Counted from the stretch's first letter, positions 15,200 to 57,998 are shown. The stretch: 64,000 nucleotides of DNA from Candidatus Aminicenantes bacterium UBA6228 (GCA_002441005.1 DJWO01000001.1:64155-128154), one strand, 5' to 3'. Notes: generated by a model not told the origin, from the sequence alone. Made by a program: numbers and translations.

Positions 15200-15211
15200 T
15201 TATAAAATCAG

Positions 15212-19258: not shown

Positions 19259-19264
19259 GCAGGC

Positions 19265-20239
19265 ATGCCAGCCAGAAAAAAAGAGAAAAAGAGCCAGTTT
19301 CGGACCGGTTATGTAGCTCTGGTTGGAAGACCAAATAGCGGCAAATCAACCCTGCTTAATACCCTGATCGGCCAGAAAATTGCCATCGTTTCCAATAAGC
19401 CTCAGACCACCAGAATCAGTTTGCTGGGGATTAAGACTACCAGCCGCGGTCAGATTATTTTTGTTGATAATCCCGGTATTCATAAGCCTTTGCATCTGAT
19501 GAACAGAAGAATGATGAATTATGTTTATTCTTCGCTGGAAACAGCTGATCTGATTCTGCTCCTGATCGAAGCCAATAAAAAATTCGGCCAGGGCGATAGA
19601 TATGTCCTCGAAATCTTGAAAAAGGTCAAGACGCCGGTTTTTCTCTTGATTAACAAGATTGACCTGGTTAAAAAGGATAGACTATTGCCCGTCATTGATA
19701 AATACAAAGATCTTTTCCCTTTTCGTGAAATCATTCCCATCTCGGCTCTTAAGGGCGACAATCTTGACCTCCTGGAAAACTTAATCTATGACTATTTACC
19801 GCAGGCCGAAAAAATATACTCGGATGAAGAGATAACCGATCAATCAGAAAGATTCCTGCTGTCAGAAATAATCAGAGAGAAAATCTTAAATCTGGTGGAA
19901 GAAGAATTGCCCTATACTACCGCTGTGGTCATCCGCTCGATTGAGCGGCCTCAGGCGGCGGATAGCGCTCTGGAGGGGGAAGAAAGTTCCGGACCAAGTT
20001 CATCAGGGAACCAGCCTCTGACCAGGATCAAAGCCGATATCCTGGTCGAAAGGGAAAATCACAAGGGTATTATCATCGGGCGCCAGGGCGGAATGATCAA
20101 GACCATCGGCACCCAGGCTCGAAAAGAAATAGAAGACATTCTGGAAAGCCGGGTCTTCCTCGAGTTAAGCGTCAGAGTAAGAGAAAAATGGCGTGATTCA
20201 GAAGAAGTCCTTGACCTGATTGAAGAGCAAAAAGAATAA
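19265..20239 (+). CDS. era: GTPase Era
   Basis: 324 aa. G1 GRPNSGKST, G3 DNPG, G4 NKID. C-terminal KH domain (IIGRQGGMIKTIG). Roughly 25-aa Ser/Gly-rich insertion between GTPase and KH domains. Confidence 0.9.
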   Translation: MPARKKEKKSQFRTGYVALVGRPNSGKSTLLNTLIGQKIAIVSNKPQTTRISLLGIKTTSRGQIIFVDNPGIHKPLHLMNRRMMNYVYSSLETADLILLLIEANKKFGQGDRYVLEILKKVKTPVFLLINKIDLVKKDRLLPVIDKYKDLFPFREIIPISALKGDNLDLLENLIYDYLPQAEKIYSDEEITDQSERFLLSEIIREKILNLVEEELPYTTAVVIRSIERPQAADSALEGEESSGPSSSGNQPLTRIKADILVERENHKGIIIGRQGGMIKTIGTQARKEIEDILESRVFLELSVRVREKWRDSEEVLDLIEEQKE

Positions 20240-42584: not shown

Positions 42585-44375
42585 ATGAAACCAATTAAAG
42601 GGCAACAGAAGAAGGGCAAAATAACGAGAAAAACTTCCCTGAATAACCGAGGGCTTTCCCGGAAATTATGGGATCAGGCCCCTTTCGCCTGTCTTCTTCT
42701 AAATACCAAAGGCATCATTACCAGCGTTAATCAGACAGAAGCCAGACTACTGGGCTATAAAAAAGAGGAGCTGGTCGGTCAGCCAATATTTAATTTTATT
42801 CTGCCCGAGCAACAGGCCGAAGCTAAAAAAAAGTTTCAGCAAAAGTTAGCCGGGAAGCCTGTTCCCAGAATCAATGACAGAATTCTGGTTAGAAAGGATG
42901 GTTCAAAAATCCAGCTGGCAGTTAATGACCTGATTGTACGGGATGACCGGGGGAAGCCAACCGGTGTTTATGGCACCATGTTCGATATAACAGATTATAA
43001 GAAGATAGAAGCCGACCTGAGGACATCCGAGGAGCGCTACAAGGACCTGGTGGAAAAAGCCGGAATTGCGATTCTCATTGATGATCAGCGGGGAAATTTT
43101 ATCTATGCCAATAAGAGGTATGCTGAAATTTTTGGCTATCCTGCCGAAGAGATAAAAAACTTATCAATTTTTTCAGTGGTTCATCCTGATGACCGGAAGA
43201 AAGTCAGGTCCTATCACCAGGGACGTTTGGTGGGAAAAAAGGTGCCAGCCAGGTATGAATTTAAAGGGATTAAAAAAGATGGTTCTATTATTTATTGCGA
43301 AGTAGACAGTGCACCTCTTAAAGAAGGTAAAGTAGCAGTTGGAACACGTTCTTACCTCTGGGATATAACTACGCGCAAAAGGACAGAAGCAGCTACCTTA
43401 GAGAGCGAAGGGCTCTACCGCTCGATTGTTGAACATTCTCATGATGGCATTTTATTGATTGATGAGAATTACAAGATTATCTATTCCAACAACGAATTAA
43501 ACCATAATCTGGATTATTCCTCTGATGAGATTCTGGGCCATGACTTCCGGGACTTTCTGGATGAAGAAAGCCGGCCACTGGTGGCTGACCATTATCTTCG
43601 AAGACAGAGAGGAGAAAAAGTTCCACCCCGTTATGAATTCAATATAGTTAGAAAAGACGGAACCAAACGAAGGGTAGAAATTAGCTCTGACGTCATAAAA
43701 GATGCGGCCGGTAAGAAGAGGACCGTGGCTCAGCTTCTGGACATTACTGACCGTAAAAAAGCTGAAGAGCTGAATAGGGAAATGATGAAGAACCTGCGGA
43801 AAGCACTGGACGGCACCATCAACGTCATCGCTTTGACGGTTGAAGCCCGTGATCCATTCACTTCCGGTCACCAGCGGCGGGTGGCTGATTTAGCCCGGGC
43901 CATAGCCACGGAAATGGGTTTGCCCAGAGACTCGATTGAAGCTATCAGGTCGGCCGCTATCATCCACGACTTAGGGAAAATACATGTTCCGGCTGATATT
44001 CTCAACAAACCCAGCAGTTTGACGGAGATAGAGTTTAACTTCATCAAGGTTCACCCCGAAGTGGCTTACAATATTCTCAAGGATATAGAATTTCCCTGGC
44101 CGGTGGCGGAGATTATCTATGAGCACCATGAAAGATGGAACGGCTCTGGCTATCCCCGGGGTCTATCCGGCCAGAACATCCTGCTGGAGGCCAGAATTCT
44201 GGGGGTAGCTGATGTGGTCGAAGCCATGGCTTCTCACCGGCCTTACCGGCCGCCGCTTGGGATAGAGAAAGCCCTGGAAGAGCTGGTGGCGAACAGTGGC
44301 CGGCTTTACGATCCAGAGGTGGTTGAGGCCTGCCTGATGGTCTTTAACCAAAAACACTATGCTTTTAAGTCATGA
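42585..44375 (+). CDS. Triple-PAS sensor with C-terminal HD-GYP domain (putative c-di-GMP phosphodiesterase)
   Basis: 596 aa. Three PAS/PAC modules (ITSVNQTEARLLGYKKEEL, IYANKRYAEIFGYPAEEI, IYSNNELNHNLDYSSDEI). HD-GYP region HQRRVADL...IHDLGK...HHERWNGSGYPRGL. Confidence 0.8.
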   Translation: MKPIKGQQKKGKITRKTSLNNRGLSRKLWDQAPFACLLLNTKGIITSVNQTEARLLGYKKEELVGQPIFNFILPEQQAEAKKKFQQKLAGKPVPRINDRILVRKDGSKIQLAVNDLIVRDDRGKPTGVYGTMFDITDYKKIEADLRTSEERYKDLVEKAGIAILIDDQRGNFIYANKRYAEIFGYPAEEIKNLSIFSVVHPDDRKKVRSYHQGRLVGKKVPARYEFKGIKKDGSIIYCEVDSAPLKEGKVAVGTRSYLWDITTRKRTEAATLESEGLYRSIVEHSHDGILLIDENYKIIYSNNELNHNLDYSSDEILGHDFRDFLDEESRPLVADHYLRRQRGEKVPPRYEFNIVRKDGTKRRVEISSDVIKDAAGKKRTVAQLLDITDRKKAEELNREMMKNLRKALDGTINVIALTVEARDPFTSGHQRRVADLARAIATEMGLPRDSIEAIRSAAIIHDLGKIHVPADILNKPSSLTEIEFNFIKVHPEVAYNILKDIEFPWPVAEIIYEHHERWNGSGYPRGLSGQNILLEARILGVADVVEAMASHRPYRPPLGIEKALEELVANSGRLYDPEVVEACLMVFNQKHYAFKS

Positions 44376-44444: not shown

Positions 44445-45587
44445 TCAATTACTTTCTGGATTGAAGTCTTTTTCCAGAAGCTTTAATTTGAGCTCAAAAG
44501 GCTCTTCCCAGGTTCTCTTAAAAGCAAAGCCAGCGATAACCCAGATGACTCCTGGCTCCGGCTCAAAAACATAAGGATAACTTAGCTGGCCGCCTGGCTG
44601 CCGGGCAATAATCACCGGCGGTGACCAGTTAAAGCCGTCGTCAGAAAAGGCTAAGCTCAGCTCTTCCCGGTGCCAGGAAGCAGGCAGTTCAGAATGAAAA
44701 GGGGTTGGTCTGGTTTTAGGCCAGGTGCGGCCCTCAGGATTAAGCCTGTTCCAGACGAGAACAAAACGGCCGCTTTGAAGCTTCAGGAGATAACCTGGTG
44801 AGCTGCTGGCCTCAATTAAAGATGGCCAGATTCTCCGCCAGTAGCGGCCATCTTCTGAGATAGCCTGCCAGAAACGGTCAAGGCCGGTTCGGATGAGCAT
44901 CAGCAACCGCCCATCGGGCAGTTCGGCCATGGCTGGTTCAAAGGCCCCATCGTGATGGCCATGTCCACCCAGATCAATCCAGTTGCTGCGACTCCAGGTC
45001 AGCCCTTCGTCGTCAGAATAGAAGGAACAAACCACCAGCCGCCCGGGGTTAGAGACTAAATGCTGGAGAGGAACCACCACCCGGCCGGAAGAGGTCTGGA
45101 CCAAACCAAAAAAGTTCGGGTTATAGCCAGAGAGAAGCCTCTGATTGTCAACCCAGGTTTTCCCGCCGTCCTGGCTCCGGATTGACCAGACTTCCAGCTG
45201 GCAGTCGCCGGGCTCATTCTTTTCCTGGTCCCAGTTGAATTGTCTGCCGTTAAAATTAAGGTAAACAAGGATCAGAACATTGTTTTTTGTCCGGAGAAGA
45301 TAATAAGAAGCAGGTTCTCTGGAATTGAGACCCGAGCAAACAAAAACAGGTTCGGACCAGCTGTGGCCGCCATCATAACTTAAAGAAAATCCTTTCTCAT
45401 CGACAGTGGCCAGGGCGCCCTCAGCCATCAAAATAAAAGGCCCTTTTTTGCCGATGTCAAGAGCCTGACAGGAAGGATGGACCCAGACAGGTTTATCAGT
45501 AGAAAACGAACTCAAAGTAAGGGCCAGCAGCATCCCGGTCAAAACCAGGCTGGTTAAAAAGAAATTGTGCTTCATCATATTTTGCAC
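44445..45587 (-). CDS. Secreted BNR/Asp-box repeat protein (sialidase-like beta-propeller)
   Basis: 380 aa. Signal peptide. At least three Asp-box motifs S-x-D-x-G-x-T-W (SYDGGHSWS, SQDGGKTW, SDDEGLTWS). Confidence 0.6.
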   Translation of the reverse strand: MQNMMKHNFFLTSLVLTGMLLALTLSSFSTDKPVWVHPSCQALDIGKKGPFILMAEGALATVDEKGFSLSYDGGHSWSEPVFVCSGLNSREPASYYLLRTKNNVLILVYLNFNGRQFNWDQEKNEPGDCQLEVWSIRSQDGGKTWVDNQRLLSGYNPNFFGLVQTSSGRVVVPLQHLVSNPGRLVVCSFYSDDEGLTWSRSNWIDLGGHGHHDGAFEPAMAELPDGRLLMLIRTGLDRFWQAISEDGRYWRRIWPSLIEASSSPGYLLKLQSGRFVLVWNRLNPEGRTWPKTRPTPFHSELPASWHREELSLAFSDDGFNWSPPVIIARQPGGQLSYPYVFEPEPGVIWVIAGFAFKRTWEEPFELKLKLLEKDFNPESN

Positions 45588-45629
45588 TTTAGCTTTTTAT
45601 ATTCTTTTTAAATCTGAATCGCGAGATCT

Positions 45630-46613
45630 TTAGCGACCGAACCGCAGCAACCCCCGGCTGCAACTGCCGGTGCATCTGGTACAGGAGAAGCAATCAGGCC
45701 TCAGAACCGAGCCCTTAACGATCTCGGCAACCGCCGGACAGGGAGATTTAATTATACAGGCCTGACAGTCGGTGCAGTTGTCTTTCTTTTTAATCACCCG
45801 AAAGAGGGCGATCTGTTCAACGACGTTGGCCATCAGGCCAACCGGACAGACTAAGTAACAGAAGGGACGGTAGGTAAAAAAGGCAAAGATAATAGTTAAA
45901 ATAAGCGGCAAAAAGTTGATGAGATTATCAATCAGGGCAGCTGCCCAGCTCCATTCATAGCCATGAAAGGCATTGATATAATCATAAAGCGACAGCGGAA
46001 CAACCCGGCCGTTAGAAACAGTGTGGATGACCGCTGTCCAGCTCAGAAAGATAAAGGCGATAAAAATCAGGATCCTGATGGTCTGGGTCAGCCGGAAACT
46101 CAGCTTGTGTCTTTTTATTTTCAATTTATCGGCCAGCATGGAGATAAGTTCCTGAATGGCCCCGACCGGGCAGACCCAGCCGCAAAACAGCTTTGGCCCG
46201 ATTAAGGTCAGGAATAAAATAACCGCCAGGAAAACCATCATTGGCAGACCAAAGCCATAAAGGATGGACTTGGTCACGGTGCAGACCGGAGAGGGATGCA
46301 TCGAGAAACCGGAAAAAAACTTAATCCCTAAATTGGCTGAAACCCCATAGAGGAAAGTTGAAACCAGCAAAATCAGCACTTTAAACCGGTCATTCATTTT
46401 TCTGGAGAGGAGCAAAATTAGAACCAGGGCGGCAATGATGAGCATGGTCAGGAACTTGGGTCTCATTAAAAACTGAAGAAAAGTGGGCGCAGCCTGACGG
46501 CCTTGTCCCCCGCCACTCCCGGTTCTCTCCTGAGCCAGAGCCAGAACTGGCAAGCTCAATAGACTGGCCAAAAACAACCAGAGGCCAAAACGCCGAAAAT
46601 TTCTCTTTAACAT
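45630..46613 (-). CDS. NapH/MauN-type integral-membrane polyferredoxin
   Basis: 327 aa. TM helices. Two cytoplasmic CxxxCP motifs (CGWVCPVG, CYLVCPVG). C-terminal CxxCxxC...CP and CxxCxxCxxxC ferredoxin-like clusters (CTDCQACIIKSPCP, CFSCTRCTGSC). Confidence 0.65.
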   Translation of the reverse strand: MLKRNFRRFGLWLFLASLLSLPVLALAQERTGSGGGQGRQAAPTFLQFLMRPKFLTMLIIAALVLILLLSRKMNDRFKVLILLVSTFLYGVSANLGIKFFSGFSMHPSPVCTVTKSILYGFGLPMMVFLAVILFLTLIGPKLFCGWVCPVGAIQELISMLADKLKIKRHKLSFRLTQTIRILIFIAFIFLSWTAVIHTVSNGRVVPLSLYDYINAFHGYEWSWAAALIDNLINFLPLILTIIFAFFTYRPFCYLVCPVGLMANVVEQIALFRVIKKKDNCTDCQACIIKSPCPAVAEIVKGSVLRPDCFSCTRCTGSCSRGLLRFGR

Positions 46614-46796: not shown

Positions 46797-48533
46797 ATGG
46801 CTAAAACTCAATCACCCCTGCCTGTTTCCTACTGGGAGCTTCAAAAAAAACAAAGGATTGTTTCCACTCTTTTATTTATTTTTCTTTTTATTTTCTATCT
46901 GGTTGCTATCGGCCTGCTTCTGACCATAATTCTCCTTGGAGGGCAGGTTTTCCTGCCTGGCTCCAATCCATTTTCCTCTTCGAATTTATTTTTATATGCA
47001 GCAGTCGCCACTTTACTGGCGGCAGTGGTCACGGTCTTAAACTTTCTCCAGGCGAAAAAGGCTGGGGTCAGTTATATTCTGAGTAACCTCCGGGCTTACC
47101 CGCCAGACCCTGATGACCGTTATCATTTGAGTTTTATTAATGTGGCTGAAGAGATGAAAATTTCTTCCGGGCTTCCCCGCCTTAAGACTTATGTTATCCC
47201 TTCGGTCAACATTAATTCTCTCTCGCTTTTCGATCAGGACAATACTCCAGCCATAGCCGTAACCGAAGGGCTGCTGGCTGAAGCCAGCCGCGACGAACTC
47301 CAGGCAGTAGCTGCTCATGAAGCCGCTCATATCCAGAAGGGCGACACTTTTCTTTTGACTCTGATCTGTTCTCTGACCGCTTTTTATGAAAAGTTCTTAG
47401 ATTCGCTGGAAAAAGAGCCAGAAGATTATCAGCGCTTCCAGCTCTCCCGCACCGGCCACCAGGCCACCTCTGCTCCCTTAGCTTATGTGGCCAGTTCAAT
47501 CTCCTTTCTCTTGATTAAATTTTTTACCATGCTGGTTTCGCAGAACCGGGAGCTGCTGGCTGATGCCACCGCCGTTGAATTAAGCCGGGATCCCGCTGCT
47601 CTGGCCCGGATTATTTATAAAGCCTGGATAGCTAATTCTTACCTGGGAGATACCTCTACTCTGACGCCTCTTTTCCTGGTTCCACCGGACTCAAAAGAGA
47701 CTACTGATAACCGCTGGAGCCGGCTGTTCAGTACTCATCCACCTGTGGAAAAAAGGCTGAGTCTGCTGGCCGGGATGACTCACCGGACGGTAGAAGAAAT
47801 AAAAAATGAGGTCAGACAGCAAGAGAAACAAAGAGAAGATAGCCGCCAGGTCATCCAGGCTTCGCTCGAAGGTGGTTATCCGGAAAAGGAAAAAGCTATC
47901 TTAAATTTAAAAGAACAGGCCGAGACTGAGCTCCACAAAACTGAGGTCTGGGAAATCAAACAGGCCGGAGGGCAATGGGCCGGGCCCTTTACCCTCGGGG
48001 CCCTGGTTTCCCAGCCGTCTTTCAGCCCGGCCATCAGGGTTAGAAACCTTAAAGAAAACCGCCAGGGCCGGGCCCTGGAATTTCCTCAAATCAGGTTTGC
48101 CCTCTATCGCCAGGCCAAGAATCAGCCAGTTGACCCGGCCTTAGCCAATCTGTGCCCGGCCTGCCAGACCGGGCTCCAGGAGTCTTTTTACGAAGGAGTC
48201 CAGATCAAAATCTGTCCTGCCTGCTCGGGCCAGCTGATCAGAATGGCTGACATTGAAAAAGTCCTGGCCCGCCAGGAATATGATTTTTCGCCAGCTCTTA
48301 GAGAGAAAGCCAGCCTTTATCAGGAAGCACTGCTAAACCCGGGCAAAAGGGCCTTAGTTTTTCCCAAAAAGAAACCTCTCCCCTGCCCGGCTTGTGGACT
48401 TCAACTGGTGGTTAAACCTTTTAATTACTATTATGTTTTCCCTGTCTATAAATGCTATCGATGCCAGTTGATCTGGTTTGAGACTGATGAACTGGAAATC
48501 CTTCAGATTCTTTTCCAGAACCGGGATCATTAG
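46797..48533 (+). CDS. HtpX-like M48 zinc metalloprotease with C-terminal GYF-like segment and two zinc ribbons
   Basis: 578 aa. Two N-terminal TM helices. HEAAH zinc motif, then a further TM hairpin and downstream Glu region (NRELLAD). Coiled-coil linker. GYF/DUF4339-like segment W-x-I-x(4)-G-Q-W-x-G-P-F. Two CPxC-x15-18-CxxC ribbons (CPACQT...CPACSG and CPACGL...CYRCQ). Confidence 0.7.
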   Translation: MAKTQSPLPVSYWELQKKQRIVSTLLFIFLFIFYLVAIGLLLTIILLGGQVFLPGSNPFSSSNLFLYAAVATLLAAVVTVLNFLQAKKAGVSYILSNLRAYPPDPDDRYHLSFINVAEEMKISSGLPRLKTYVIPSVNINSLSLFDQDNTPAIAVTEGLLAEASRDELQAVAAHEAAHIQKGDTFLLTLICSLTAFYEKFLDSLEKEPEDYQRFQLSRTGHQATSAPLAYVASSISFLLIKFFTMLVSQNRELLADATAVELSRDPAALARIIYKAWIANSYLGDTSTLTPLFLVPPDSKETTDNRWSRLFSTHPPVEKRLSLLAGMTHRTVEEIKNEVRQQEKQREDSRQVIQASLEGGYPEKEKAILNLKEQAETELHKTEVWEIKQAGGQWAGPFTLGALVSQPSFSPAIRVRNLKENRQGRALEFPQIRFALYRQAKNQPVDPALANLCPACQTGLQESFYEGVQIKICPACSGQLIRMADIEKVLARQEYDFSPALREKASLYQEALLNPGKRALVFPKKKPLPCPACGLQLVVKPFNYYYVFPVYKCYRCQLIWFETDELEILQILFQNRDH

Positions 48534-48765
48534 AGTAAAAACATTTCTGCCTTACTGTCCGGGCCGACTCCTGGTGAACTTCAGGGCATTTCTGTATCAG
48601 AAGAGCTCATCTCCGCCTGAAAAAAAGATAACTGTCAGGGCAGGGGGAATTTCATCTGGAGATTCACCTCTAAGGGTGATTGAAGATGAGAAACCGAAGT
48701 GAGATACCATAAGTGCAATGGCCGAAATCCCAGTTTGGGGTTAATTTTTGAAAGAGGGTAAGACC

Positions 48766-50577
48766 ATGACGAAAAACAAAATCCTGCTGATAGACTTCGA
48801 CAACGAGTTCCTGAAATTTCTGGGCCAGGCCTTAAGCCAGGAAGGGTATGAAATCCAGACAGCAACTGATGGCCTGGCCGGCTTTGAAAAATTTTCTGAG
48901 TTTCAACCGGATCTGGTCATCATGGAAGCGATGCTGCCCAAATTCCACGGTTTTGAACTCTGTTCGCGTATTACTTCCCATCCGACCAAAAAAGCACCGG
49001 TTATAATTGTTACCGGAATTTACAAAGATTCTGTTTATAAAACCGAGGCTTTAAAAAGCCTGGGAGCTTCCGCCTTTTTTGAGAAGCCATTGAATCTCGA
49101 AGCCCTGCTGACCAGAGTTTATGAGCTGATTGGTAAGCCAGAGGTCAAAAAGCACCAGGTTAAGACTGAAGAAGATAAAGACCTGGATGAGTTATTGAAA
49201 CAAGCTCTGGCTTCGGCTTATACTCCTGCTCAGTCTTCACCAACTGTCAAAACAGTTGAAAAGACTCCCCGGAGAGAAGAAATTAGAAAGACTCCACCTA
49301 CCCCCCAGGATGATGAAATAGATCTGATTTTGAAATCGAAACTTAAAGACCTGATTTCAACTTCAGAGGAAAAAACAGCGGCAGCCGCCGTTCACCAGGC
49401 CCCGGCTTCAGCTCCGCCTAAAAAGGCTGAAGCCCCCAGGCCGGCACCAGTGACTCAAACTAAAAAGCCGGAACCGGCTGTAAGTCAAGCCTCAACCGGA
49501 AGCCAGGCTGTTAAAAAGCTGGCTGAAAAAGAAGCAAAGACTACCGGTCTCAGTCAAACTATGAGACCTGAACCAAGAGCTCCCCAGAAATCTGATCAAC
49601 CGAGAACCAGTCCTCCAGCGGCGGCCAGTTTCGAAGAGACCTCCAGGCCAGCACCGGCTGCCGTTAATCCTTTTAAGGCTTATACCGAAAGCAACGGGAA
49701 AAAGAGTACCAGGAAGAGTCCGGCCAAATATATTGGCCTGGCGGCCTCGGCCCTGGCCGTCATCGGGCTGGTTGCCTTTTTAACTTTAAACAAGAAAAAA
49801 ACTCCAGAATTTTCGGGCCAGCCGGCCAACCAGACAGCTGCCCTGCAAACAGCTGGAGCTGATCAGAACCAGAGCCTGCCAGTTCAAGACAATCTTAATA
49901 AGGAAGAAGATATAAATAAAGAAATCGAAAAACAGATGGCCGAATACCGCAGTCAGCAGGCCCGGGCAGATAAAAATGCTCCCTCTGCCGCCAATCAGAA
50001 CCTGAAAGGCAGCCCGGCCGGCCGGACTTCTAATAAAACGGCGGCTATTCCGGCTGCACCTATTATTCCTGAGGAAACACCAAAAATAGAAGTAAATATG
50101 GAGAGCGGACAACAAACCACAGTTCCAGCTCAATCTAATCCAGCTCCAGTGACCTCCGTTCAACCTGAAGAAACAAAAGTGAACAATGAAGAGCCTCCGG
50201 TCACAGCCAGTCAGGACAATCAGGCCAAAACTGAAGACCAGCCGGTTAGCCTGGCCAGCCAGAAGGCTAAGCCAGGGGAAGTCTTTCCCCTTTCTGCCGT
50301 TGATGTCGAACCAAAAGTAGTTAAGAGTATAGACCCCATCTACCCCGAAGTTGACCGACGGGCAGGCGTCAGGGGCAATATTATCGTCAACGCCCTGATT
50401 TCAGAAAATGGCGATGTCCTGGAGGCGGTGGTAATTAGGGGAATCAGTGGCTCAGTCACTTTAGAGAAAGAGGCCGTTTCGGCCGTCAAAAAATGGAAGT
50501 TCTTGCCAGCTGAAAAAGATGGTGTTAAAGTAAAGGTCTGGAAACCAATTACCATTGGTTTCGGTTTAAATAAATAG
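48766..50577 (+). CDS. Pseudo-receiver (REC, Asp->Glu)-Pro/Ala-rich linker-TM-TonB C-terminal domain fusion
   Basis: Start at ATG 48766 (MTKNKILLID), with RBS agaggg upstream. The ORF-track start at 48748 is a TTG. Residues 1-125 align position by position with CheY-like REC (KILLIDFDNEF, Thr in VIIVTGI, Lys in FFEKP), but the phospho-acceptor position reads DLVIMEAMLP, with Glu instead of Asp. About 200-aa P/A/K/E-rich linker. One TM helix (IGLAASALAVIGLVAFL). Periplasmic segment. C-terminal TonB_C fold signature (EPKVVKSIDPIYPEVDRRAGVRGNIIVNALISENGDV...KKWKF). Confidence 0.7.
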   Translation: MTKNKILLIDFDNEFLKFLGQALSQEGYEIQTATDGLAGFEKFSEFQPDLVIMEAMLPKFHGFELCSRITSHPTKKAPVIIVTGIYKDSVYKTEALKSLGASAFFEKPLNLEALLTRVYELIGKPEVKKHQVKTEEDKDLDELLKQALASAYTPAQSSPTVKTVEKTPRREEIRKTPPTPQDDEIDLILKSKLKDLISTSEEKTAAAAVHQAPASAPPKKAEAPRPAPVTQTKKPEPAVSQASTGSQAVKKLAEKEAKTTGLSQTMRPEPRAPQKSDQPRTSPPAAASFEETSRPAPAAVNPFKAYTESNGKKSTRKSPAKYIGLAASALAVIGLVAFLTLNKKKTPEFSGQPANQTAALQTAGADQNQSLPVQDNLNKEEDINKEIEKQMAEYRSQQARADKNAPSAANQNLKGSPAGRTSNKTAAIPAAPIIPEETPKIEVNMESGQQTTVPAQSNPAPVTSVQPEETKVNNEEPPVTASQDNQAKTEDQPVSLASQKAKPGEVFPLSAVDVEPKVVKSIDPIYPEVDRRAGVRGNIIVNALISENGDVLEAVVIRGISGSVTLEKEAVSAVKKWKFLPAEKDGVKVKVWKPITIGFGLNK

Positions 50578-50603: not shown

Positions 50604-50843
50604 ATGGGCATCTCAAAAGATCAAGAAGAGCTTTATAAGAAGACTCTGGAAGATGTGCGCAGCCAGCTTTCAGATATTGACGCCGAGGTAGAAAAAGAGC
50701 TGCAGCGGGTCAGACAAACCCTGGCTCAACTGCAGGAGCAGAAAAAATCATTGAAGATGGTTTATGAAGGAATTGCCAAGCTCCTCGGAATCGAAAGTGA
50801 TCTGGAAGACGACTCGGCTGAGACTAGCATCCCAAAGATGTAA
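50604..50843 (+). CDS. Small coiled-coil hypothetical protein
   Basis: 79 aa, 26 nt downstream of the REC-TonB gene on the same strand. Heptad-like charged helix (EELYKKTLEDVRSQLSDIDAEVEKELQRVRQTLAQLQEQKKSLK). No known motif. Confidence 0.35.
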   Translation: MGISKDQEELYKKTLEDVRSQLSDIDAEVEKELQRVRQTLAQLQEQKKSLKMVYEGIAKLLGIESDLEDDSAETSIPKM

Positions 50844-50984
50844 TCATTGATATAGAAGCAACCTGGCCAGAGCCTCACCTTTCTTTCGATTGACCTTTAA
50901 AACCGAGAGGGAAAAGGGTCTTGTCTTGCCAAATAGCTCTTTTTGAGGTATTTTTATACTTTAAATTTTACCCTGGATACCCTG

Positions 50985-51632
50985 ATGTTTATGCTTATTG
51001 GCTTTCTGATCGGGTTCTTTGCAGCTGTTCCGGTTGGCCCGGTCAATATTTACATTGTCTCTCAGACTCTCAAGAGAGACTTTTTTCATGGGATGATAGC
51101 CGGGCTGCTCACTGCCCTGCTTGATCTGACTTTCTGTTTAGTTTCTCTTATTGGCTTCTTTCATATTTCTCTAAATCTTTCAGATTATAGTTTCTGGCTT
51201 AAACTGGCCGCTGGAGCCATCTTGCTTTTTCTTGGCTTGAAATTATTTCACGATGCCAGGGCTTTTAAGCTCAATACCGAAAAAAATGGTCCGGTTTCCA
51301 AAACTGCCCGGCCTCTCTTCGGGGTAATTCTATTGTATGTCTCCAATCCCTCTCTCTACGCTTTCTGGATTGGAGTGGCCGGGGCAGTGAATGCTCATGG
51401 CCTGCTTAAGAACGGATTCTGGCCAGCTGTCTTCTTCGGTCTATCCTGCGGCCTGGGTGCTCTTCTCTGGTACTTCTTTTTAGTCAGGCTGGTTTCTCAT
51501 CATCAAGCCAGATTCCAGGAGACTACTTTTAAAAAATTGTTTATCATCCTGGGACTCTTTTTGATTGGTTTTGCTCTTTTTACTTTTGTTTCAGCCTTTG
51601 CCAATATTAAACTGGCCGGCCAGGTGTTTTGA
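50985..51632 (+). CDS. LysE/RhtB-family amino-acid efflux translocator
   Basis: Start at ATG 50985 (MFMLIGFLIGFFAAVPVGPVNIY). The ORF-track start at 50943 is a TTG. Six TM helices. LysE-type N-terminal PVGP motif. Confidence 0.7.
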   Translation: MFMLIGFLIGFFAAVPVGPVNIYIVSQTLKRDFFHGMIAGLLTALLDLTFCLVSLIGFFHISLNLSDYSFWLKLAAGAILLFLGLKLFHDARAFKLNTEKNGPVSKTARPLFGVILLYVSNPSLYAFWIGVAGAVNAHGLLKNGFWPAVFFGLSCGLGALLWYFFLVRLVSHHQARFQETTFKKLFIILGLFLIGFALFTFVSAFANIKLAGQVF

Positions 51633-51690: not shown

Positions 51691-54600
51691 ATGACCGGGG
51701 AGTTAATTCTACCAAAAGATACGGAGGTTTCCAGGCCGGAGTTTATCTTACTTGAGGCTTCCGCCGGTACCGGTAAAACTCATGCTCTGACCTTAAGGTT
51801 TGCTCAATTTCTGCTGTCAGATAAAATCAGGAATAACCAGCTCAATCAAATTCTGGCCATCACCTTCACTCATAACGCCGCCAATGAAATGAAAGACAGA
51901 ATAATCGGTTGGCTTAAAGTCACCCACTTTGGGCAGGACACGGCCCGGCTGAAAGACATTAAAGAGCTGGTCAGCCTGCCGGCAGAAGCTTTTCCCGGCC
52001 GGGCCGAAGAAAAGCTGGAATATCTTTTTGACCATTACAGCGACTTTCAGGTCACAACCATTGACAGCTTCATGACCGATGTTTTTAAGGCGTCTGCCAT
52101 AGAAATGGGCTTCAGCCCTGACTTTGGCATTACTCTCAATACCGCCCCGGTCATCAATTACGCCTTTTACCGGTATTTAAGAAATATTACAGCCGAATCA
52201 CAAGATGGACAGTTATTGCTCAGGATTACGGATAGCCTTAAAGAAATGAAAGGCAGCGATAAAGCCTTCCTCTGGAATCCGGCTGATGAAATTCTCGAGA
52301 CCTTTACTCAGTTTTATCGAAAACTGGAGGCTCTTTACCGCCAGCCTGAAATTAAAAGACCGGAGGAGTTCCAGCTGGAGCTCGAGAAAGCTGAACGTGA
52401 CTGGCATGGCTCTCTACAAAAATTGCGTCAGCTCTTGATAAATACACCTCTGGAAAGAGCTGAGCGCTCGGCCATCTGGCGACGTTTGAACTCAGATAAT
52501 ATAAGGGATTGGTTCGATTGCTCGTTTAAAACTGACCCTGTCAAAAAAACAGAATCGCCTGATCGGCTGGCGATTTATCAGGAAGTTAATAAAGGCCTGA
52601 ATGCTTTTAAAGAAAAGCTAAAAAAATATAAAAGGCTCTATGCCGCCTCTTATTTTCAGCCTCATCTTCAGGTTTATCACCGGCTCCTCGACCGTCTGGA
52701 TTTTATCAAAAAAGAAAAGGGCCTGATTTTTCTGGACGATGTCAATCGCCATCTGGCTGCTTATCTTCAGACCGGCGTGGTGCCCGACATCTATCTTTGC
52801 CTCGGTGGCCAGATTTACCATTTCCTGATTGATGAATTTCAGGATACCTCCCCTATTCAATGGAAGAATCTGGTACCACTGATCGATAATGCCCTTTCCC
52901 AGGGTGGAAGTTTGTTCATCGTTGGCGACACCAAACAGGCAATTTATGGCTTCCGGGAAGCTGATTATCAGATCATGGTTGACCTGAAAAAAGGGGACGA
53001 AAAATTCTATTCAGTTGAGGTCTGTGTCAAACCGCTGGTTACCAACCGCCGTAGCCGGCAAGCTATCCTTGATTTTGTCTCGAGCATTTTCCCCAAAGGA
53101 ATTAAGAGCCTGGATGTCGGCCAGGATAATAAGAAAATGGCTGATAAGATAGAGCCCTGGAAGCAAGCCGCCAACAGCAGCGGGCTGGATAACTTCGAAT
53201 GTCAGGGAGTTGAGGATAAAACTCAAGGTGGCGGTGACATTTTTCCCGGTTACGTGGAAATGGAGTTTTTTCAACCGCCCCAAAAATCAAAAAATAAGGA
53301 CGAACAGACCGAAGATAATGGCGAAGAAGTTCCCTCCGGGCCGGAGGCCGAAGAAGAGGTTGAGCTGGAAGACGCAGCCCTCAAAAAAAGAGTTCAGGAA
53401 CTGATCCCTGATCTTCAAAAACGTGGCTATGACCTCTCGGATATAACCATTTTAGCCTACAAAAACGAGACGGTGGTCAGAGCCGCCTCCTGGTTAAATG
53501 AGAAACAAATCCCCTTTGTGACCTTTTCTTCACTTGATATCAGACAGCGGCCGGTTATTAAAGAAATTATGGCTCTGTTGCAGTTTCTTGATTTTCCACT
53601 CGATAATCTGAACTTTTCTACTTTTCTTCTTGGCGGTCTTTTTCAAAACAAGCTCAGAGCTGATGGCCATTCCGGGCAAGAAAGGGAGAAACTTGCGGAA
53701 TTCATTCTGGAAACCAGGCTCAGGAGCGGCCAGAAAGATTATCCCCTTTACACTTATTTCAAGCAAAAATATCAGGATCTCTGGGAATCATATTTTGAGC
53801 CTCTTTACAGGACAGTTGGCTATTTGCCTCTTTATGATCTGGTCAGCGAGATTTACCGCACCTTTTCTGTTTTTGATCCCGGCCTTACCGGTGATGAACA
53901 GTCTTCGCTGATTAAACTTCTGGAAGTTATAAAACAATTTGAGGGTGAGGGCGGCAGCAATCTCCGGGATTTTATGCGATTTTCCGGAGAAGAAACAGAA
54001 GACACTTCAGTTTGGACAGTGGATGTGCCCGAAAGTATTAAGGCGGTCAGGATTATGACCATCCATAAGGCCAAGGGACTTGAATCCCCGGTGATCATTT
54101 TGCTTCTCTACCGCGAACAAAGCCAGTCTATTCCCTTTTTCCTTAAAGAAGAAGATAGCGGCCAGGGGCCGGCCCGGGTAAAGGTTCTTAAGCTTTCTAA
54201 AGACATCATTTCCGACGATGAAGAATTAAAAGAAATCCACCAAGAAGCCACCAGAAAGGAACTGGCCAATCGGTTGAATACTTTTTACGTCGCCCTGACC
54301 AGAGCTAAAGAAGAGCTTTATATTTTAGGGCAGCGTGGCCAAAAAAATTATTTCCCTTTTAACTTTTTAGAATCATTAGGTTTTCCACTAGATCAGAAAT
54401 TTCAATCGGCCGAAGAGAAGCCGGCCAGAAAAGCCAGGCAAACAGCTGGCGGCCTTCCCGGCCAGCTGGAAATGCCGAATCCACCTCTCAGTTTTCTCCA
54501 TGAAGCTCCGGACAGATTCCGTCTGGTTAAAAATCTTCCCCATTACCGTCAGGAGAGGCGTGGTGAGTTAATTCATGCCATCCTCGAGAAAATTGATTTC

Positions 54601-55008
54601 CTGGAAGAGAACCTTGAGGAGCAACTGGAAAAAATCATCTCTGACCGGGCCTTCCGAAAATATCAGGCAGAAGAAAAGGAAGAGGCCAGAAAATCTCTCC
54701 TCCAGTTTTTAAAGAGACCGGAGGTGGCTGAATTTTTTAGACAGCGGCCGGGCCGGGAGGTAAGAACAGAAGCCGATATGGTAAATAGACAAGGTGAGCT
54801 TTACCGCACTGACCGCCTGCTGATCGAGCCTGAAGTCATCTCGATTATTGATTTTAAAACAGGCCAGTTCTCCGATGAGGCTATTAAAAAAGGTCACGCC
54901 AGGCAGGTAAAAAACTATAAGGCTATTCTCGAAGAAATATATCCAGGCAGAAAGATAAGTGGCTGGCTTCTTTATATTGATTCTGCTGAGCGGGAGGAGG
55001 TTCTTTGA
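51691..55008 (+). CDS. addA: ATP-dependent helicase/nuclease subunit A (UvrD-like helicase with C-terminal PD-(D/E)xK nuclease)
   Basis: 1105 aa. Walker A EASAGTGKTHAL. Motif II FLIDEFQDTSPIQW. Motif VI-like VALTRAKEELY. C-terminal RecB-type nuclease (IIDFKTG...QVKNYKAILEE). Confidence 0.8.
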   Translation: MTGELILPKDTEVSRPEFILLEASAGTGKTHALTLRFAQFLLSDKIRNNQLNQILAITFTHNAANEMKDRIIGWLKVTHFGQDTARLKDIKELVSLPAEAFPGRAEEKLEYLFDHYSDFQVTTIDSFMTDVFKASAIEMGFSPDFGITLNTAPVINYAFYRYLRNITAESQDGQLLLRITDSLKEMKGSDKAFLWNPADEILETFTQFYRKLEALYRQPEIKRPEEFQLELEKAERDWHGSLQKLRQLLINTPLERAERSAIWRRLNSDNIRDWFDCSFKTDPVKKTESPDRLAIYQEVNKGLNAFKEKLKKYKRLYAASYFQPHLQVYHRLLDRLDFIKKEKGLIFLDDVNRHLAAYLQTGVVPDIYLCLGGQIYHFLIDEFQDTSPIQWKNLVPLIDNALSQGGSLFIVGDTKQAIYGFREADYQIMVDLKKGDEKFYSVEVCVKPLVTNRRSRQAILDFVSSIFPKGIKSLDVGQDNKKMADKIEPWKQAANSSGLDNFECQGVEDKTQGGGDIFPGYVEMEFFQPPQKSKNKDEQTEDNGEEVPSGPEAEEEVELEDAALKKRVQELIPDLQKRGYDLSDITILAYKNETVVRAASWLNEKQIPFVTFSSLDIRQRPVIKEIMALLQFLDFPLDNLNFSTFLLGGLFQNKLRADGHSGQEREKLAEFILETRLRSGQKDYPLYTYFKQKYQDLWESYFEPLYRTVGYLPLYDLVSEIYRTFSVFDPGLTGDEQSSLIKLLEVIKQFEGEGGSNLRDFMRFSGEETEDTSVWTVDVPESIKAVRIMTIHKAKGLESPVIILLLYREQSQSIPFFLKEEDSGQGPARVKVLKLSKDIISDDEELKEIHQEATRKELANRLNTFYVALTRAKEELYILGQRGQKNYFPFNFLESLGFPLDQKFQSAEEKPARKARQTAGGLPGQLEMPNPPLSFLHEAPDRFRLVKNLPHYRQERRGELIHAILEKIDFLEENLEEQLEKIISDRAFRKYQAEEKEEARKSLLQFLKRPEVAEFFRQRPGREVRTEADMVNRQGELYRTDRLLIEPEVISIIDFKTGQFSDEAIKKGHARQVKNYKAILEEIYPGRKISGWLLYIDSAEREEVL

Positions 55009-57998
55009 AAGTAACCATTGTTCCGGCCGGGGTTAATCTCATCGAGCTTTTGGCCAGACACTTAGTGGCTTCCTCTACTGACTTCAGCCGTATCCTGGTC
55101 GTTTTCCCCGAGCAAAGGCCAGGTCATTATCTGAGGAAGACTCTCGGCGAAATGATCGGCCGCAGTTTCCTGCCTCCCTCTATCTTTTCCCTGGATGAGT
55201 TTATTGATTTTTCCTACAGCCGCTTTCTTCAGAGAGATGAACCTCTGCTCGAAACGGTGGAGGCGATCAGCCTCTTATATAACTTAAATGAGGCCAATCT
55301 GGAAAACTCTTTTCGCGGGCAGAAAGAGTCGAGGCTGACCTTTGATGAGTTTTTCCCCATCGGCAATAAGATTTTTCAGGATCTCGAAGAACTCAAAATG
55401 GGGTTGATAACCCCGGATAAGTTTCTGGCCATAGATGAGCTGGCCGGTGAAAAAATACCGGAGAAAACCAGAGCCAGACTGCAGAAAATGTCTTATTTTT
55501 ATGAGCATTTTTACCGGGAGGTGGAACGCCAGGGCTTTTCAACTCCGGCCAGCCGGCTCGAAAAAGTTCTGGAAAAAATTGAACCTGGCTGGTTTAGCTC
55601 CTTTGATGAAGTTATTCTGGCCGGTTTTTACCTTCTGACCTCCGCCGAATTTGAACTGCTCAATAAAGTGCTGGAGGCAGAAAGAACCCGGTTATTTGTC
55701 CTCAAAGGGACCGGCTGGGAAGACCTGCTGAAAAGAATCAGAGCTGACCGGTCAGAAATAGAGGAAATTGACGGACCGGAAGGAATAGCCGAGCCAGAGC
55801 TTGAATTCAATCAGAGCCCGGACGGTCATGGCCAGCTTTTTCATCTAAATAGTCTTCTTCAGGATAAAATTTCCCGGCCTTCCGAGCTCAGCGAAAAACA
55901 GGTTATTGTCCTCCCGGCAGTTGAGACTTTAATTCCGGTTGTCGAACAGACCCTGGCCCGGCTGCCAGAGACCGGTTACAATATTTCTGTCGGTTATCCC
56001 CTGACCAGAACCCCACTATATAATTTCTTTGACTCGCTTTTTAAGCTGCTGGAAACAGCTGAAGAAGACAGCTCAGATGGAGCTTCGGCTCGGCCGCCAG
56101 AAGAAAGGTTCAGGCTCTATGTCTCCGATTATCTTAATTTTGTGCTTCATCCTTATACCAAAAATATCTATTTCCCGACGACACCCAGGACAGCTGAACA
56201 CACCAGAATACTCTTTCATCTCATGGAAAATAATTTTAACCAGAAAAAAGGCCGGCTTTTCTGGTCGCTGGAGGAAATGGCTGCTGATCCAGATCTCAGG
56301 GACAGTCTGGAAAAATACACCGGCGAAAATCCGGCCTATCCTCGAAGCTCCGAATTCATTCAGCATCTTCGCTCGATACACCAGCAGACCATTATTCCCT
56401 TCCTGAGCCTTAAAAATATCAATGACTTCGCAGCCAAATTAATTGGTCTTCTGGATTTTATTTCAGAAGAAAGCACTGCGCCTCTTCATGTTTTATTTGA
56501 GCCTTATGCCCGGGCCTTTTACCAGCAACTGGAAATTCTCCAGAGCCAGCTTCTGACCAGACAGAAATTCAGCCGGCGCTCTGGTTATTTTCAGCTATTC
56601 CGGCGTTTGTTTTCTGAGGCCCGCGTCCGCTTTCCAGGCACACCGCTTCGTGGCCTGCAGGTCCTTGGTTTCTGGGAAACGCGCTGCCTCCAGTTTGATG
56701 ATGTCTATCTTCTCGATCTGAACGATGATGTTCTGCCCGGGACGAGCAAAGTTGATTCGCTTCTTCCTGCACCCTTAAGAAAGGCTCTTGGCCTCCGTTA
56801 TCATGAAAATCTGGAAAAAAGAATTGAATATTATCTCAGCCTGTTAGTGGCCGGAGCAAAGAACATTCATTATTTCTTTATCGAAAATGATGAAAAACAG
56901 AAAAGCCGCTATATAGAAAAATCCCTCTGGAAAAAGCAAAAGAAAGAAAAAGAAACAGACGAAAATAAATATATTAAAAAAGTCAGCTATCGTCTTGCTC
57001 TCCAGACACCAAACCCGCCCGATATCCCCAAGACAGAAAAAATCCTCGGCTATCTCGACAATATGACCTTCAGCGCTTCCAGCCTGAATACCTATCTTAA
57101 GTGTCCGGTCGAGTTTTTCTATGCCCACGTTCTCGGGCTGAGTGAAAAAGAAGAACTGGCCGAATCGCTGGAAAGTAGCGAAATCGGGACGCTGGTTCAT
57201 GCCATTTTAAGACAGTATTTCTGGCCTGACCTGAAGAAAAAAATGCTACCCGAATCGGATACCGACAGGTTAAAAACTCTGATTGATGCCGAATTTAACC
57301 AGCGGCGTTATCCTTCACCGCTCACCGGCAGTCTCTTTTTGATGAGAAAACAGATAGAACAACATTTAGAGGAATTTCTCCTGGCTTACCAGCAAAAAGT
57401 GGCCGGCGAGCTCCAGGCTGCCGGACAGAATCTAATCCTGCTGGCGCTGGAAAAAGATCTGAAACTCGATTATAAGCTGGGCCAAAGGACCTTTCAGTTC
57501 AAGGGAAAGATTGACCGGATAGAAAAGCGCGGCGAGTATCTTTGTCTCCTTGATTATAAGACTTCAGCCAGCGAAAAGAACCAGGTAATTAATATTGATA
57601 AGCTCGAGCTTGGAGATCGAAGCTCCTGGCCCCAGGCCATAAAAAGTTTACAGCTTCCTTTCTATCAGCTTCTGGCTTCAGCCAAATATAAACTGCCGCC
57701 CGAAGATATTTATTCAGCGGTCATCATTCTGGGCAGGAACCATCTCAACGAAAAGATTGAATATTCGCCGCTTAAAGGCAGAAAAGGAAGCAAGCCAAAA
57801 GGCCAGGTGGAGAAAATTTTCCCTTTATCGGAATCAGATGAAGAGAAGCTAAAGCGTCAGCAATATTTCCGGTTGATAGAACAGGTGATTGATCAATTGC
57901 TGCTGGAAATTGTCGATAGCAACCAGCCCTTTTCAGCCAGATTCAAGGCCGAAGACAGCTGCACCTATTGTCCCTTTACCAGCTTTTGTGGCCAGTAA
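55005..57998 (+). CDS. addB: ATP-dependent helicase/nuclease subunit B (degenerate helicase + PD-(D/E)xK nuclease with Fe-S cysteines)
   Basis: 997 aa. 4-nt overlap with addA. C-terminal nuclease LLDYKTS. Four-Cys Fe-S staple pattern (YLKCPVEFFY plus CTYCPFTSFC at the extreme C-terminus), characteristic of AddB. Confidence 0.75.
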   Translation: MKVTIVPAGVNLIELLARHLVASSTDFSRILVVFPEQRPGHYLRKTLGEMIGRSFLPPSIFSLDEFIDFSYSRFLQRDEPLLETVEAISLLYNLNEANLENSFRGQKESRLTFDEFFPIGNKIFQDLEELKMGLITPDKFLAIDELAGEKIPEKTRARLQKMSYFYEHFYREVERQGFSTPASRLEKVLEKIEPGWFSSFDEVILAGFYLLTSAEFELLNKVLEAERTRLFVLKGTGWEDLLKRIRADRSEIEEIDGPEGIAEPELEFNQSPDGHGQLFHLNSLLQDKISRPSELSEKQVIVLPAVETLIPVVEQTLARLPETGYNISVGYPLTRTPLYNFFDSLFKLLETAEEDSSDGASARPPEERFRLYVSDYLNFVLHPYTKNIYFPTTPRTAEHTRILFHLMENNFNQKKGRLFWSLEEMAADPDLRDSLEKYTGENPAYPRSSEFIQHLRSIHQQTIIPFLSLKNINDFAAKLIGLLDFISEESTAPLHVLFEPYARAFYQQLEILQSQLLTRQKFSRRSGYFQLFRRLFSEARVRFPGTPLRGLQVLGFWETRCLQFDDVYLLDLNDDVLPGTSKVDSLLPAPLRKALGLRYHENLEKRIEYYLSLLVAGAKNIHYFFIENDEKQKSRYIEKSLWKKQKKEKETDENKYIKKVSYRLALQTPNPPDIPKTEKILGYLDNMTFSASSLNTYLKCPVEFFYAHVLGLSEKEELAESLESSEIGTLVHAILRQYFWPDLKKKMLPESDTDRLKTLIDAEFNQRRYPSPLTGSLFLMRKQIEQHLEEFLLAYQQKVAGELQAAGQNLILLALEKDLKLDYKLGQRTFQFKGKIDRIEKRGEYLCLLDYKTSASEKNQVINIDKLELGDRSSWPQAIKSLQLPFYQLLASAKYKLPPEDIYSAVIILGRNHLNEKIEYSPLKGRKGSKPKGQVEKIFPLSESDEEKLKRQQYFRLIEQVIDQLLLEIVDSNQPFSARFKAEDSCTYCPFTSFCGQ

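Follow-up and report, generated by a model that had tools for sequence, protein, structure and literature searches.

A pseudo-receiver joined by a single transmembrane helix to a TonB C-terminal domain, with a small coiled-coil partner, in Candidatus Aminicenantes

Introduction

A stretch of 64,000 nucleotides from Candidatus Aminicenantes bacterium UBA6228 (GCA_002441005.1 DJWO01000001.1:64155-128154; in the following, the window) contains at positions 48766..50577 of the plus strand a gene in which a response-regulator receiver domain (REC) is joined to the C-terminal domain of TonB (TonB_C), and the question raised by this locus is what such a protein might do at the cell envelope. In nearly all discussions, TonB_C domains figure as that end of the ExbBD motor which delivers the force. 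An earlier note, made from the sequence of the window, had described the protein's N-terminal portion as a receiver with Glu instead of Asp at the phospho-acceptor position and had read the whole as a trans-envelope transducer. Is the fusion real, what has become of the receiver pocket, and is the protein better understood as an energy-transducing TonB or as part of a signalling or adaptor module?

Results

Gene structure and domain organization

The REC-TonB_C gene is an intact open reading frame (ORF) encoding 603 amino acids (aa), with two Pfam domains and full-length collinear homologues. A TTG at 48748 could also serve as the start but is the less likely choice, since the ATG at 48766 has the motif GAGGG about 9 nt in front of it and the homologues begin at an equivalent Met. 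Response_reg is matched at aa 6-118 (Pfam; 74.2 bits versus a cut-off of 30.2, E=1.2e-20) and TonB_C at aa 524-600 (53.3 bits versus 24.6, E=4e-14). Within NCBIfam, the generic model tonB_Cterm (TIGR01352; 44.6 versus a cut-off of 27.1) is the sole domain above cut-off, and all response-regulator equivalogs score far under their own cut-offs against the 603-aa protein.

An AlphaFold2 (AF2) model of the protein, built on a family alignment of 53 sequences, exhibits two globular parts, aa 1-122 with a predicted local distance difference test (pLDDT) score of ~95 and aa ~500-600 with a pLDDT of 90-97, and between them linkers of low confidence, in which helices are predicted at aa 137-151, 182-197, 326-341 (the transmembrane, TM, helix) and 379-401. 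The first of the globular parts corresponds to the pseudo-receiver domain, which is assigned to the cytoplasm (aa 1-125; 48766..49140) and is supported by Pfam, reference alignments, AF2 and Foldseek. It superposes on solved receivers of the OmpR/PhoB class with a TM-score of ~0.9 and a root-mean-square deviation of 1.1-1.5 Å; when the full-length model was submitted to Foldseek, the matches were generic receivers only.

The single TM helix (aa ~321-343; 49726..49794), which carries Lys/Arg on both flanks, is indicated by hydropathy, AF2 and the family alignment; with the hydropathy maximum of 2.42 at aa 323-341, it is the one hydrophobic helix in the whole protein. Hydropathy and AF2 also agree with the earlier note in that the long Pro/Ala/Lys-rich segment lies ahead of this helix, i.e., on the cytoplasmic side. 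Behind the helix follows a periplasmic low-complexity spacer rich in A/Q/P/E/N (aa 344-500; 49795..50265), which was delimited by composition and has no match in Pfam. This spacer comprises ~160-170 residues (A 14%, Q 11%, P 11% and E 9%, as determined over aa 351-520), lacks a classic (EP)n/(KP)n rod, and shows pLDDT values below 50 apart from a predicted helix at aa 379-401 (49900..49968; pLDDT ~76); its length is sufficient to span the periplasm. The periplasmic TonB_C domain itself (aa 501-603; 50266..50574), supported by Pfam, NCBIfam and relatives in the PDB, contains the motifs YP and W-K-F-x-P, both of which align with the closest solved relatives, the C-terminal domains (CTDs) of Vibrio TonB2 (2k9k; E=3.8e-6) and Pseudomonas TonB (6fip/6i97).

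A frameshift or an assembly chimera is ruled out, because more than 140 homologue clusters match the protein collinearly from end to end. The receiver and the TonB_C domain of the earlier note are therefore both upheld, the former by the Pfam match, the reference alignments and the AF2 model, the latter by the Pfam match and by its closest solved relatives being true TonB CTDs: a pseudo-receiver, one TM helix and a genuine TonB_C domain are confirmed in a single protein.

The receiver pocket

Residue equivalences in the receiver were established by alignments to CheY, PhoB, Spo0F and RpaA. The phospho-acceptor position (D57 of CheY) is occupied by Glu54, and both the conserved Thr (Thr83) and the conserved Lys (Lys107) are kept, as had been read from the motifs VIIVTGI and FFEKP. 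Concerning the acidic pocket, previously seen in LLIDFDNEF, the first Asp of the pair is indeed kept (D10), whereas the second, the Mg2+ ligand (D13 of CheY), is replaced by Phe11, with D12 one position further on, so that the pocket is doubly degenerate. Owing to the substitutions at Glu54 and Phe11, the nucleophile and one metal ligand are both absent from the pocket. With Glu as acceptor and Phe in place of the Mg2+-ligand Asp, the domain is predicted to be incapable of Asp phosphotransfer, and it fits the definition of pseudo-receivers given in PMC12632262, namely a match to the receiver profile with a residue needed for phosphotransfer missing.

The altered pocket is nevertheless not a variable one. 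Its signature reads D10-F11-D12 ... E54 ... H61-G62-F63 ... T83-G-I-Y86-K ... K107-P108, in which E54, D10, D12, K107 and H61-G62-F63 are invariant in 53/53 aligned members. A wider census was taken over 146 receiver-containing cluster representatives (50% identity). Among these, the acceptor position is Glu in 134, Ser in 8, Asp in 2 and Ala and Arg in 1 each, whereas the position of the Mg ligand is aromatic in 142 (Tyr 77, Phe 65). The first Asp of the acidic pair is present in 138 representatives, Thr/Ser at the position of the conserved Thr in 145 and the conserved Lys in 140; of the residues specific to the family, His61 is found in 128 and Tyr86 in 139. A pocket that is remodelled and yet conserved points to purifying selection and not to decay, and its simplest reading would be that of a binding site or a locked conformation rather than a relic.

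Glu is the most frequent replacement of the acceptor in pseudo-receivers, the idea that such domains are constitutively on has been disproved for some of them, and how bacterial pseudo-receivers work is an open question (PMC12632262; TonB is mentioned nowhere in this review, with 0 occurrences). A constitutively 'on' state of the Glu54 receiver, which the earlier note had suggested, is to be taken as a hypothesis.

A related receiver with the motifs MPKLHGFELC and YK, which possesses an intact DD pair and an acceptor Asp, was encountered at locus L043 (4554..6350), where it sits within a TPR-repeat protein of a different lineage; possibly, this is the type of phosphorylatable receiver from which the pseudo-receiver descended.

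Motifs in the cytoplasmic linker

The receiver is followed, still on the cytoplasmic side, by a linker of ~195 residues, which is mostly variable and predicted to be disordered; a Pfam search with the protein and with the linker gave no match in it, ZnR and GYF included. Two copies of a short motif are embedded in this linker, and for both of them AF2 predicts an amphipathic helix. The first copy (aa 137-151; 49174..49218, plus strand), with DLDELLKQAL at aa 139-148, forms an island of conservation. The second (aa 182-197; 49309..49356, plus strand; DEIDLILKSKLKDL), with its core EIDLILKSKL at aa 184-193, is the better conserved of the two: D186 is found in 48, L189 in 51 and L193 in 47 of the 53 members. 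Both fit the pattern [DE]-[LIV]-D-x-[LIM]-L-K-x-x-L, which 51/53 members contain in strict form at least once.

The small coiled-coil partner

Directly downstream, at 50604..50843 of the plus strand, lies a gene for an acidic protein of 79 aa. It starts 26 nt past the stop of the REC-TonB_C gene, is preceded by the Shine-Dalgarno sequence TAAGGAG, and no terminator-like site is situated between the stop of the one gene and the start of the other; this arrangement suggests that both are co-transcribed. A homologue of 74-89 aa is found immediately downstream in 19/19 complete loci (17, plus L052 and L053), the kinase variants described below included, and at L053 it even overlaps the TonB_C stop codon by 4 nt. 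The small protein accompanies every complete REC-TonB_C or kinase-variant locus examined and is, as such, an obligate partner. Among the same loci, its identity amounts to 52-89%, versus ~34-68% for the large protein. In total, 1,703 homologue clusters were obtained, those listed having lengths of 75-96 aa and no meaningful names, and a copy with 100% identity occurs in a Ca. Aminicenantales metagenome-assembled genome (MAG).

For the partner, AF2 predicts a single long helix (aa 5-61; pLDDT >90), which passes into a disordered acidic tail with a conserved C-terminal PKM. Hydrophobic positions are conserved at the 3-4 spacing of heptads, and no change is seen at Y11, T14, A41, Q44, L61 and G62, not even among the copies that diverge most. 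Profile searches of Pfam, NCBIfam and the PDB yielded sub-threshold coiled-coil noise only (e.g., YkyA, DUF948 and SMC5). A function as a histidine phosphotransfer (HPt) protein is ruled out, as the protein contains no His.

Distribution of the family and its variants

A word-indexed search returned 76 clusters with PF00072+PF03544, of which those that are named carry the label 'TonB family protein' and, as far as source organisms are named, derive from Ca. Saccharicenans, Aminicenantes and Acidobacteriota MAGs. The 603-aa protein is 95% identical to its closest match (P0001) and 68% identical to P0004 from Ca. Saccharicenans; together with the 100% identical copy of the partner protein, this assigns the window to an Aminicenantales bacterium. 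A scan of species-representative genomes revealed ~34 loci with a receiver of the family type; the named ones among them belong to Aminicenantes/Acidobacteriota MAGs, others are labelled, e.g., 'uncultured Eubacteriales' or Clostridiales. Run exhaustively against 1.84 billion representatives, HMMER found 1,364 hits at E<=1e-30, and in the best 150 clusters (50% identity) from these hits both domains are present in 140. Judged from these searches, REC-TonB_C proteins constitute a large family of Aminicenantia/Acidobacteriota metagenomes and not a rarity. The earlier note had considered that the architecture might prove to be already common and annotated: it is common, and it is tagged with PF00072+PF03544, but it is not annotated as a known paralogue family. 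Its view that a REC-TonB architecture is undescribed agrees with the literature, in so far as no description of REC-TonB_C, of kinase-TonB_C or of the partner protein was found in the papers searched, including those on Aminicenantes TonB and on Saccharicenans.

A sister clade contains in addition a protein kinase. In 9/9 long variants of 866-1147 aa, the pseudo-receiver, a Pkinase domain, a TM helix and TonB_C are all present; in the two inspected more closely (P0078 and P0083), the kinase motifs VAIK, HRD and DFG are intact and Ser is found at the acceptor position of the receiver. The kinase is of the Hanks Ser/Thr type and apparently active. At two such loci, L007 (8001..13546) and L052 (10001..15735), downstream of the kinase-variant gene come first the partner gene and next a FecBCD-type importer composed of Peripla_BP_2, FecCD and ABC_tran. 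In L007, the partner ORF overlaps the gene of the binding protein, and an outer-membrane protein resembling TonB-dependent transporters (TBDTs) is encoded nearby, upstream; in L052, accD-folC follows after the importer. Topologically, these variants correspond to receptor Ser/Thr kinases in which TonB_C takes the place of the sensor, and by gene order they are tied to an uptake route of the siderophore, heme or B12 type, namely to its inner-membrane half. The 603-aa protein is the kinase-less form of the family.

The C-terminus is variable as well. The protein encoded at L024 (4804..6612) possesses the same pseudo-receiver and ends in PEGA, which replaces TonB_C, so that the extracytoplasmic module is exchangeable; no partner gene was detected adjoining this PEGA variant.

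Furthermore, stand-alone paralogues of the Glu-type pseudo-receiver exist (156-183 aa; L017-L042, e.g., L029 6001..6471), whose tail, acidic and with a helix (DEDDIDEELPD..VIEALS), resembles the first linker motif. Stand-alone and fused forms occur in the same genome in CAVTOI (L013 and L025) and in CAVSAI (L014 and L020). In each case, the stand-alone gene is situated directly upstream of housekeeping genes, namely accD, one that is folC-like, and an ATP synthase operon; as accD-folC follows the importer at the kinase-variant locus L052, one might speculate that the stand-alone genes are remnants of an ancestral fusion at that position. From the sizes of its products (263, 430, 138, ~195, 180 and 505 aa), the operon past the stand-alone paralogue had been guessed to be ExbB/ExbD/TonB-like; this was rejected, as Pfam identified AccD, a FolC-like ligase and the ATP synthase subunits b, b', delta, alpha and gamma, and the operon gives no clue to function.

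The TM helix and the search for a motor

In E. coli TonB, a face of the anchor helix formed by Ser-x3-His touches ExbB/ExbD. The TM helix of the REC-TonB_C protein, YIGLAASALAVIGLVAFLTL, contains neither a His nor an SxxxH motif, and no His is found in the TM helix among the 53 aligned members. Its mean column identity is ~0.43, whereas the receiver reaches 0.63-0.80 and TonB_C 0.62-0.78.

Genes for ExbB, ExbD, TolQ and TolR are absent from the window, as the earlier note had stated, according to Pfam (26 ORFs) and phmmer (all ORFs of at least 50 aa). When the phmmer search, for which manually entered E. coli sequences served as queries and no positive control was included, was extended to the window plus 583 kb of loci, it returned only a spurious match of 13.7 bits in an ATP-synthase b-subunit region. 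The Pfam-annotated neighbourhoods of 9 loci contain no PF01618 or PF02472 gene, and at ~20 loci no MotA_ExbB or ExbD gene is present within 6-10 kb. An ORF of 149 aa (17550..17999), at one time considered as ExbD, was rejected, being YbeY; it belongs to a conserved housekeeping cluster on the plus strand (14255..20239) with phoH, a 7TM-receptor HD hydrolase, ybeY, corC and era.

Neighbouring genes

Upstream of the REC-TonB_C gene, and separated from it by a weak terminator-like hairpin (48726-48742), the plus strand encodes a membrane metalloprotease of the M48/HtpX type with two zinc ribbons at its C-terminus (46797..48533; Pfam Peptidase_M48 and Zn_ribbon_TFIIB x2), whose membership in the module is uncertain. 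The combination of an M48 protease with two zinc ribbons of the TFIIB type is in itself unusual. An orthologue lies 0-4 kb upstream in 8/14 family loci, with genes on the opposite strand intervening in L005, L008 and L014. Both this protein and the 79-aa ORF had been suggested as interaction partners; whereas the latter is obligate (19/19 loci), the M48 protein is merely loosely syntenic and, present at only 8/14 loci and often in a separate transcription unit, was rejected as an obligate partner. Similarly uncertain is the membership of a LysE-family exporter (50943..51632, plus strand; Pfam LysE E=1.2e-21), which is located just past the partner in the window and in L001, L003, L005, L009-L011 and L053, and is missing from L006, L008 and the loci of the kinase variants.

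No histidine kinase gene adjoins the REC-TonB_C gene in any of the contexts examined, and glt, agl, motility or division genes are likewise missing from them. FecR and sigma-70_r2/r4 gave no matches in the protein or its neighbours, which sets it apart from FecR-type anti-sigma systems.

Further away in the window, a 596-aa protein with several PAS domains, assigned by synteny with L001, is encoded at 42585..44375 of the plus strand; the C-terminal motifs HDLGK ... HHERWNGSGYP of this ORF are typical of HD-GYP c-di-GMP phosphodiesterases. At 44445..46613 of the minus strand, a BNR/sialidase-like beta-propeller adjoins a polytopic Fer4_5 iron-sulfur membrane protein, a pair that is also found in L001. 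Past the exporter, two large overlapping genes on the plus strand (51691..55008 and 55005..57998) have counterparts in L001 with UvrD-helicase+PDDEXK_1 and with PDDEXK_1 alone; the pair 51691..57998 probably encodes an AddAB/RexAB-like helicase-nuclease.

Discussion

Interpretation of the module

Given the domains and the topology found, a trans-envelope transducer, as proposed by the earlier note, is a reasonable reading, and tentatively, with somewhat less than even confidence, we prefer to regard the two genes as a trans-envelope signalling or adaptor module and not as a classical, ExbBD-energised TonB. This reading is favoured because the pseudo-receiver is under selection, the partner is present in 19/19 loci, a sister clade carries a kinase, both of its loci examined are linked to an importer, and the C-terminus can be swapped; GltJ and the M56-TonB_C fusions serve as precedents. 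Classical TonB coupling is disfavoured because the TM helix is weakly conserved and without His or SxxxH, and because ExbBD was not found within 6-10 kb at the ~20 loci.

Beyond the architecture, every step of the mechanism is inferred. TonB_C would bind the TonB box of one or several outer-membrane TBDTs, or another envelope ligand, and through the single TM helix this engagement would alter how the protein oligomerises or which conformation it adopts; the coiled-coil partner, as the output in the cytoplasm, would then be bound or released by the pseudo-receiver and the linker motifs. For the sister clade, phosphorylation of a target by the kinase, possibly of the partner's invariant Thr14, would be added. 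The direction would be outside-in, or the module would be a scaffold, in either case built on a TonB domain. A more specific version, possible but doubtful in our view, is that TonB_C acts as the periplasmic sensor of an outside-in route, in which it reads the TonB boxes of ligand-loaded transporters and reports their occupancy via the pseudo-receiver or kinase and a coiled-coil effector, without ExbBD and without an extracytoplasmic function (ECF) sigma/anti-sigma pair.

Several points weigh against a signalling or adaptor module. A canonical TonB_C and a spacer of sufficient length to span the periplasm are just what an energy-transducing TonB needs, and ExbBD, here searched for in the window and the loci, is often encoded elsewhere in the genome. 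The partner exhibits no recognisable effector, enzymatic or DNA-binding domain (Pfam, PDB), and binding of the TonB box, binding of the partner and outside-in flow are inferred steps. Within one bacterial class, moreover, the adjacency of the two genes could partly reflect inherited synteny; pure inheritance is disfavoured, because the partner persists in the divergent kinase clade (31% identity).

The most serious rival, which we consider possible yet rather unlikely, holds that the protein is a TonB paralogue that does transduce energy: its TM helix would couple to a motor of the ExbB-ExbD or TolQR-like kind whose genes lie elsewhere, while the cytoplasmic parts and the partner would only regulate, localise or stabilise it. 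The canonical TonB_C domain with YP and W-x-F-x-P, whose closest solved relatives are true TonB CTDs, the TonB-like Nin-Cout single pass with its long periplasmic spacer, and the database label 'TonB family protein' would all be expected of such a paralogue, and the kinase-variant loci lie directly upstream of a Peripla_BP_2/FecCD/ABC importer, at L007 with a TBDT-like outer-membrane protein close by. It would, however, have to work with a poorly conserved helix that lacks SxxxH and His in 53/53 members, and without exbB/exbD within 6-10 kb at ~20 loci; it leaves a cytoplasmic region of ~320 aa under strong selection unexplained, and the swap to PEGA and the insertion of a kinase are typical of sensors and not of motors. 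Clearly less probable is a role comparable to that of TolA or Glt, in which the protein, as a static scaffold or tether across the envelope, would link an outer-membrane protein or peptidoglycan to a cytoplasmic coiled coil and serve envelope integrity, positioning or surface motility. The parallel to the architecture of GltJ, a partner that is a pure coiled coil with neither an enzymatic nor a DNA-binding domain, and two long spacers that AF2 predicts to be disordered are compatible with a tether, whereas ZnR and GYF domains as well as glt, agl, motility or division genes are missing from the contexts examined, and a sister clade with an apparently active Ser/Thr kinase and a link to a nutrient importer speaks for signalling or uptake.

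That the protein is an ordinary phosphorylatable response regulator with a membrane-anchored output, controlled by a histidine kinase, is very improbable. Its receiver has kept the fold, Thr83 and Lys107, but the acceptor Asp is missing in 144/146 representatives, Phe/Tyr stands in place of the Mg2+-ligand Asp in 142/146, and an adjacent histidine kinase gene was not found in the contexts examined, so that the sequence effectively refutes this explanation.

If the signalling reading is true, outside-in sensing by TonB_C would be a previously unrecognised route of signalling from the cell surface. Irrespective of this, the family offers a concrete, testable case for TonB domains in signalling or scaffolding, and a well-defined class of pseudo-receivers with an obvious candidate binding partner provides a way into the question of how pseudo-receivers work. 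The two genes make up a large uncharacterised module in an uncultured lineage, and a conserved envelope module is thereby added to the biology of the widespread Aminicenantes.

Comparison with known systems

With TonB (E. coli TonB, Pseudomonas TonB1, Vibrio TonB2), the protein shares a TonB_C domain with the motifs YP and W-x-[FY]-x-P and a single Nin-Cout TM helix followed by a long flexible periplasmic spacer. Despite this general similarity, there are clear differences: the REC-TonB_C protein possesses ~320 cytoplasmic aa, whereas TonB has few such residues and TonB proteins in general lack a cytoplasmic domain (PMC8262864); its TM helix is poorly conserved and without SxxxH; and at the loci examined no exbBD genes adjoin, the gene being always paired instead with that of a small coiled-coil protein. 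By anchor motif, short N-terminus and ExbBD linkage at these loci, it would therefore not be classed as an energy-transducing TonB.

The receiver resembles known pseudo-receivers (FrzS, the ChxR type, plant PRRs and REC1 of ShkA; PMC12632262) in its fold, in the replacement of the acceptor Asp, in the retention of Thr and Lys, and in a presumed role in protein-protein interaction or a locked conformation. It differs from them by the conserved aromatic residue at the Mg-ligand position and the motifs H-G-F and T-G-x-Y-K, and by its 'output', which consists of a TM helix and a periplasmic TonB_C domain.

TonB_C domains on membrane-embedded modules of the signal-transducer type are also described for the BlaR1/M56-TonB_C proteins (e.g., TonB1 and TonB10 of B. 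thetaiotaomicron), for which a signalling function has been suggested, TonB proteins with extra domains being uncharacterised (PMC10350073). In those proteins, however, the module is formed by an M56 peptidase containing several TM helices, and no gene for a coiled-coil partner accompanies them.

In layout, and possibly in logic, the REC-TonB_C protein is similar to GltJ/GltG of the Agl-Glt gliding system of Myxococcus xanthus (PMC11135422), and the analogy to Glt-type proteins in the earlier note is a fair architectural match. In GltJ, too, a folded cytoplasmic domain is followed by a disordered linker that carries a binding motif, a TM helix then leads to a TonB-like C-terminus in the periplasm, and the cytoplasmic domain acts together with the linker motif as a protein-binding switch (PMC11135422). 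The cytoplasmic domains of GltJ are, however, ZnR and GYF and not a receiver; its partners MglA, MglB and AglZ and the motor AglRQS are all missing from the REC-TonB_C loci, and there is no sequence homology beyond TonB_C.

A similar overall plan is found in receptor Ser/Thr kinases of the PknB/PrkC type, which likewise combine a cytoplasmic signalling part, one TM helix and an extracytoplasmic binding domain, and in the sister clade with the order pseudo-receiver (PsR), Pkinase, TM helix and TonB_C, which has the same pseudo-receiver, TM helix, TonB_C domain and partner gene. In the 603-aa protein, the place of the kinase is taken by the disordered linker with its two helix motifs. The 603-aa protein exhibits the features by which a PsR-(Pkinase)-TM-TonB_C module can be recognised, i.e., a receiver with D-[FY]-[DE] ... 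E/S ... HGF ... TGxYK ... KP, a TM helix, a TonB_C domain and a partner of ~80 aa.

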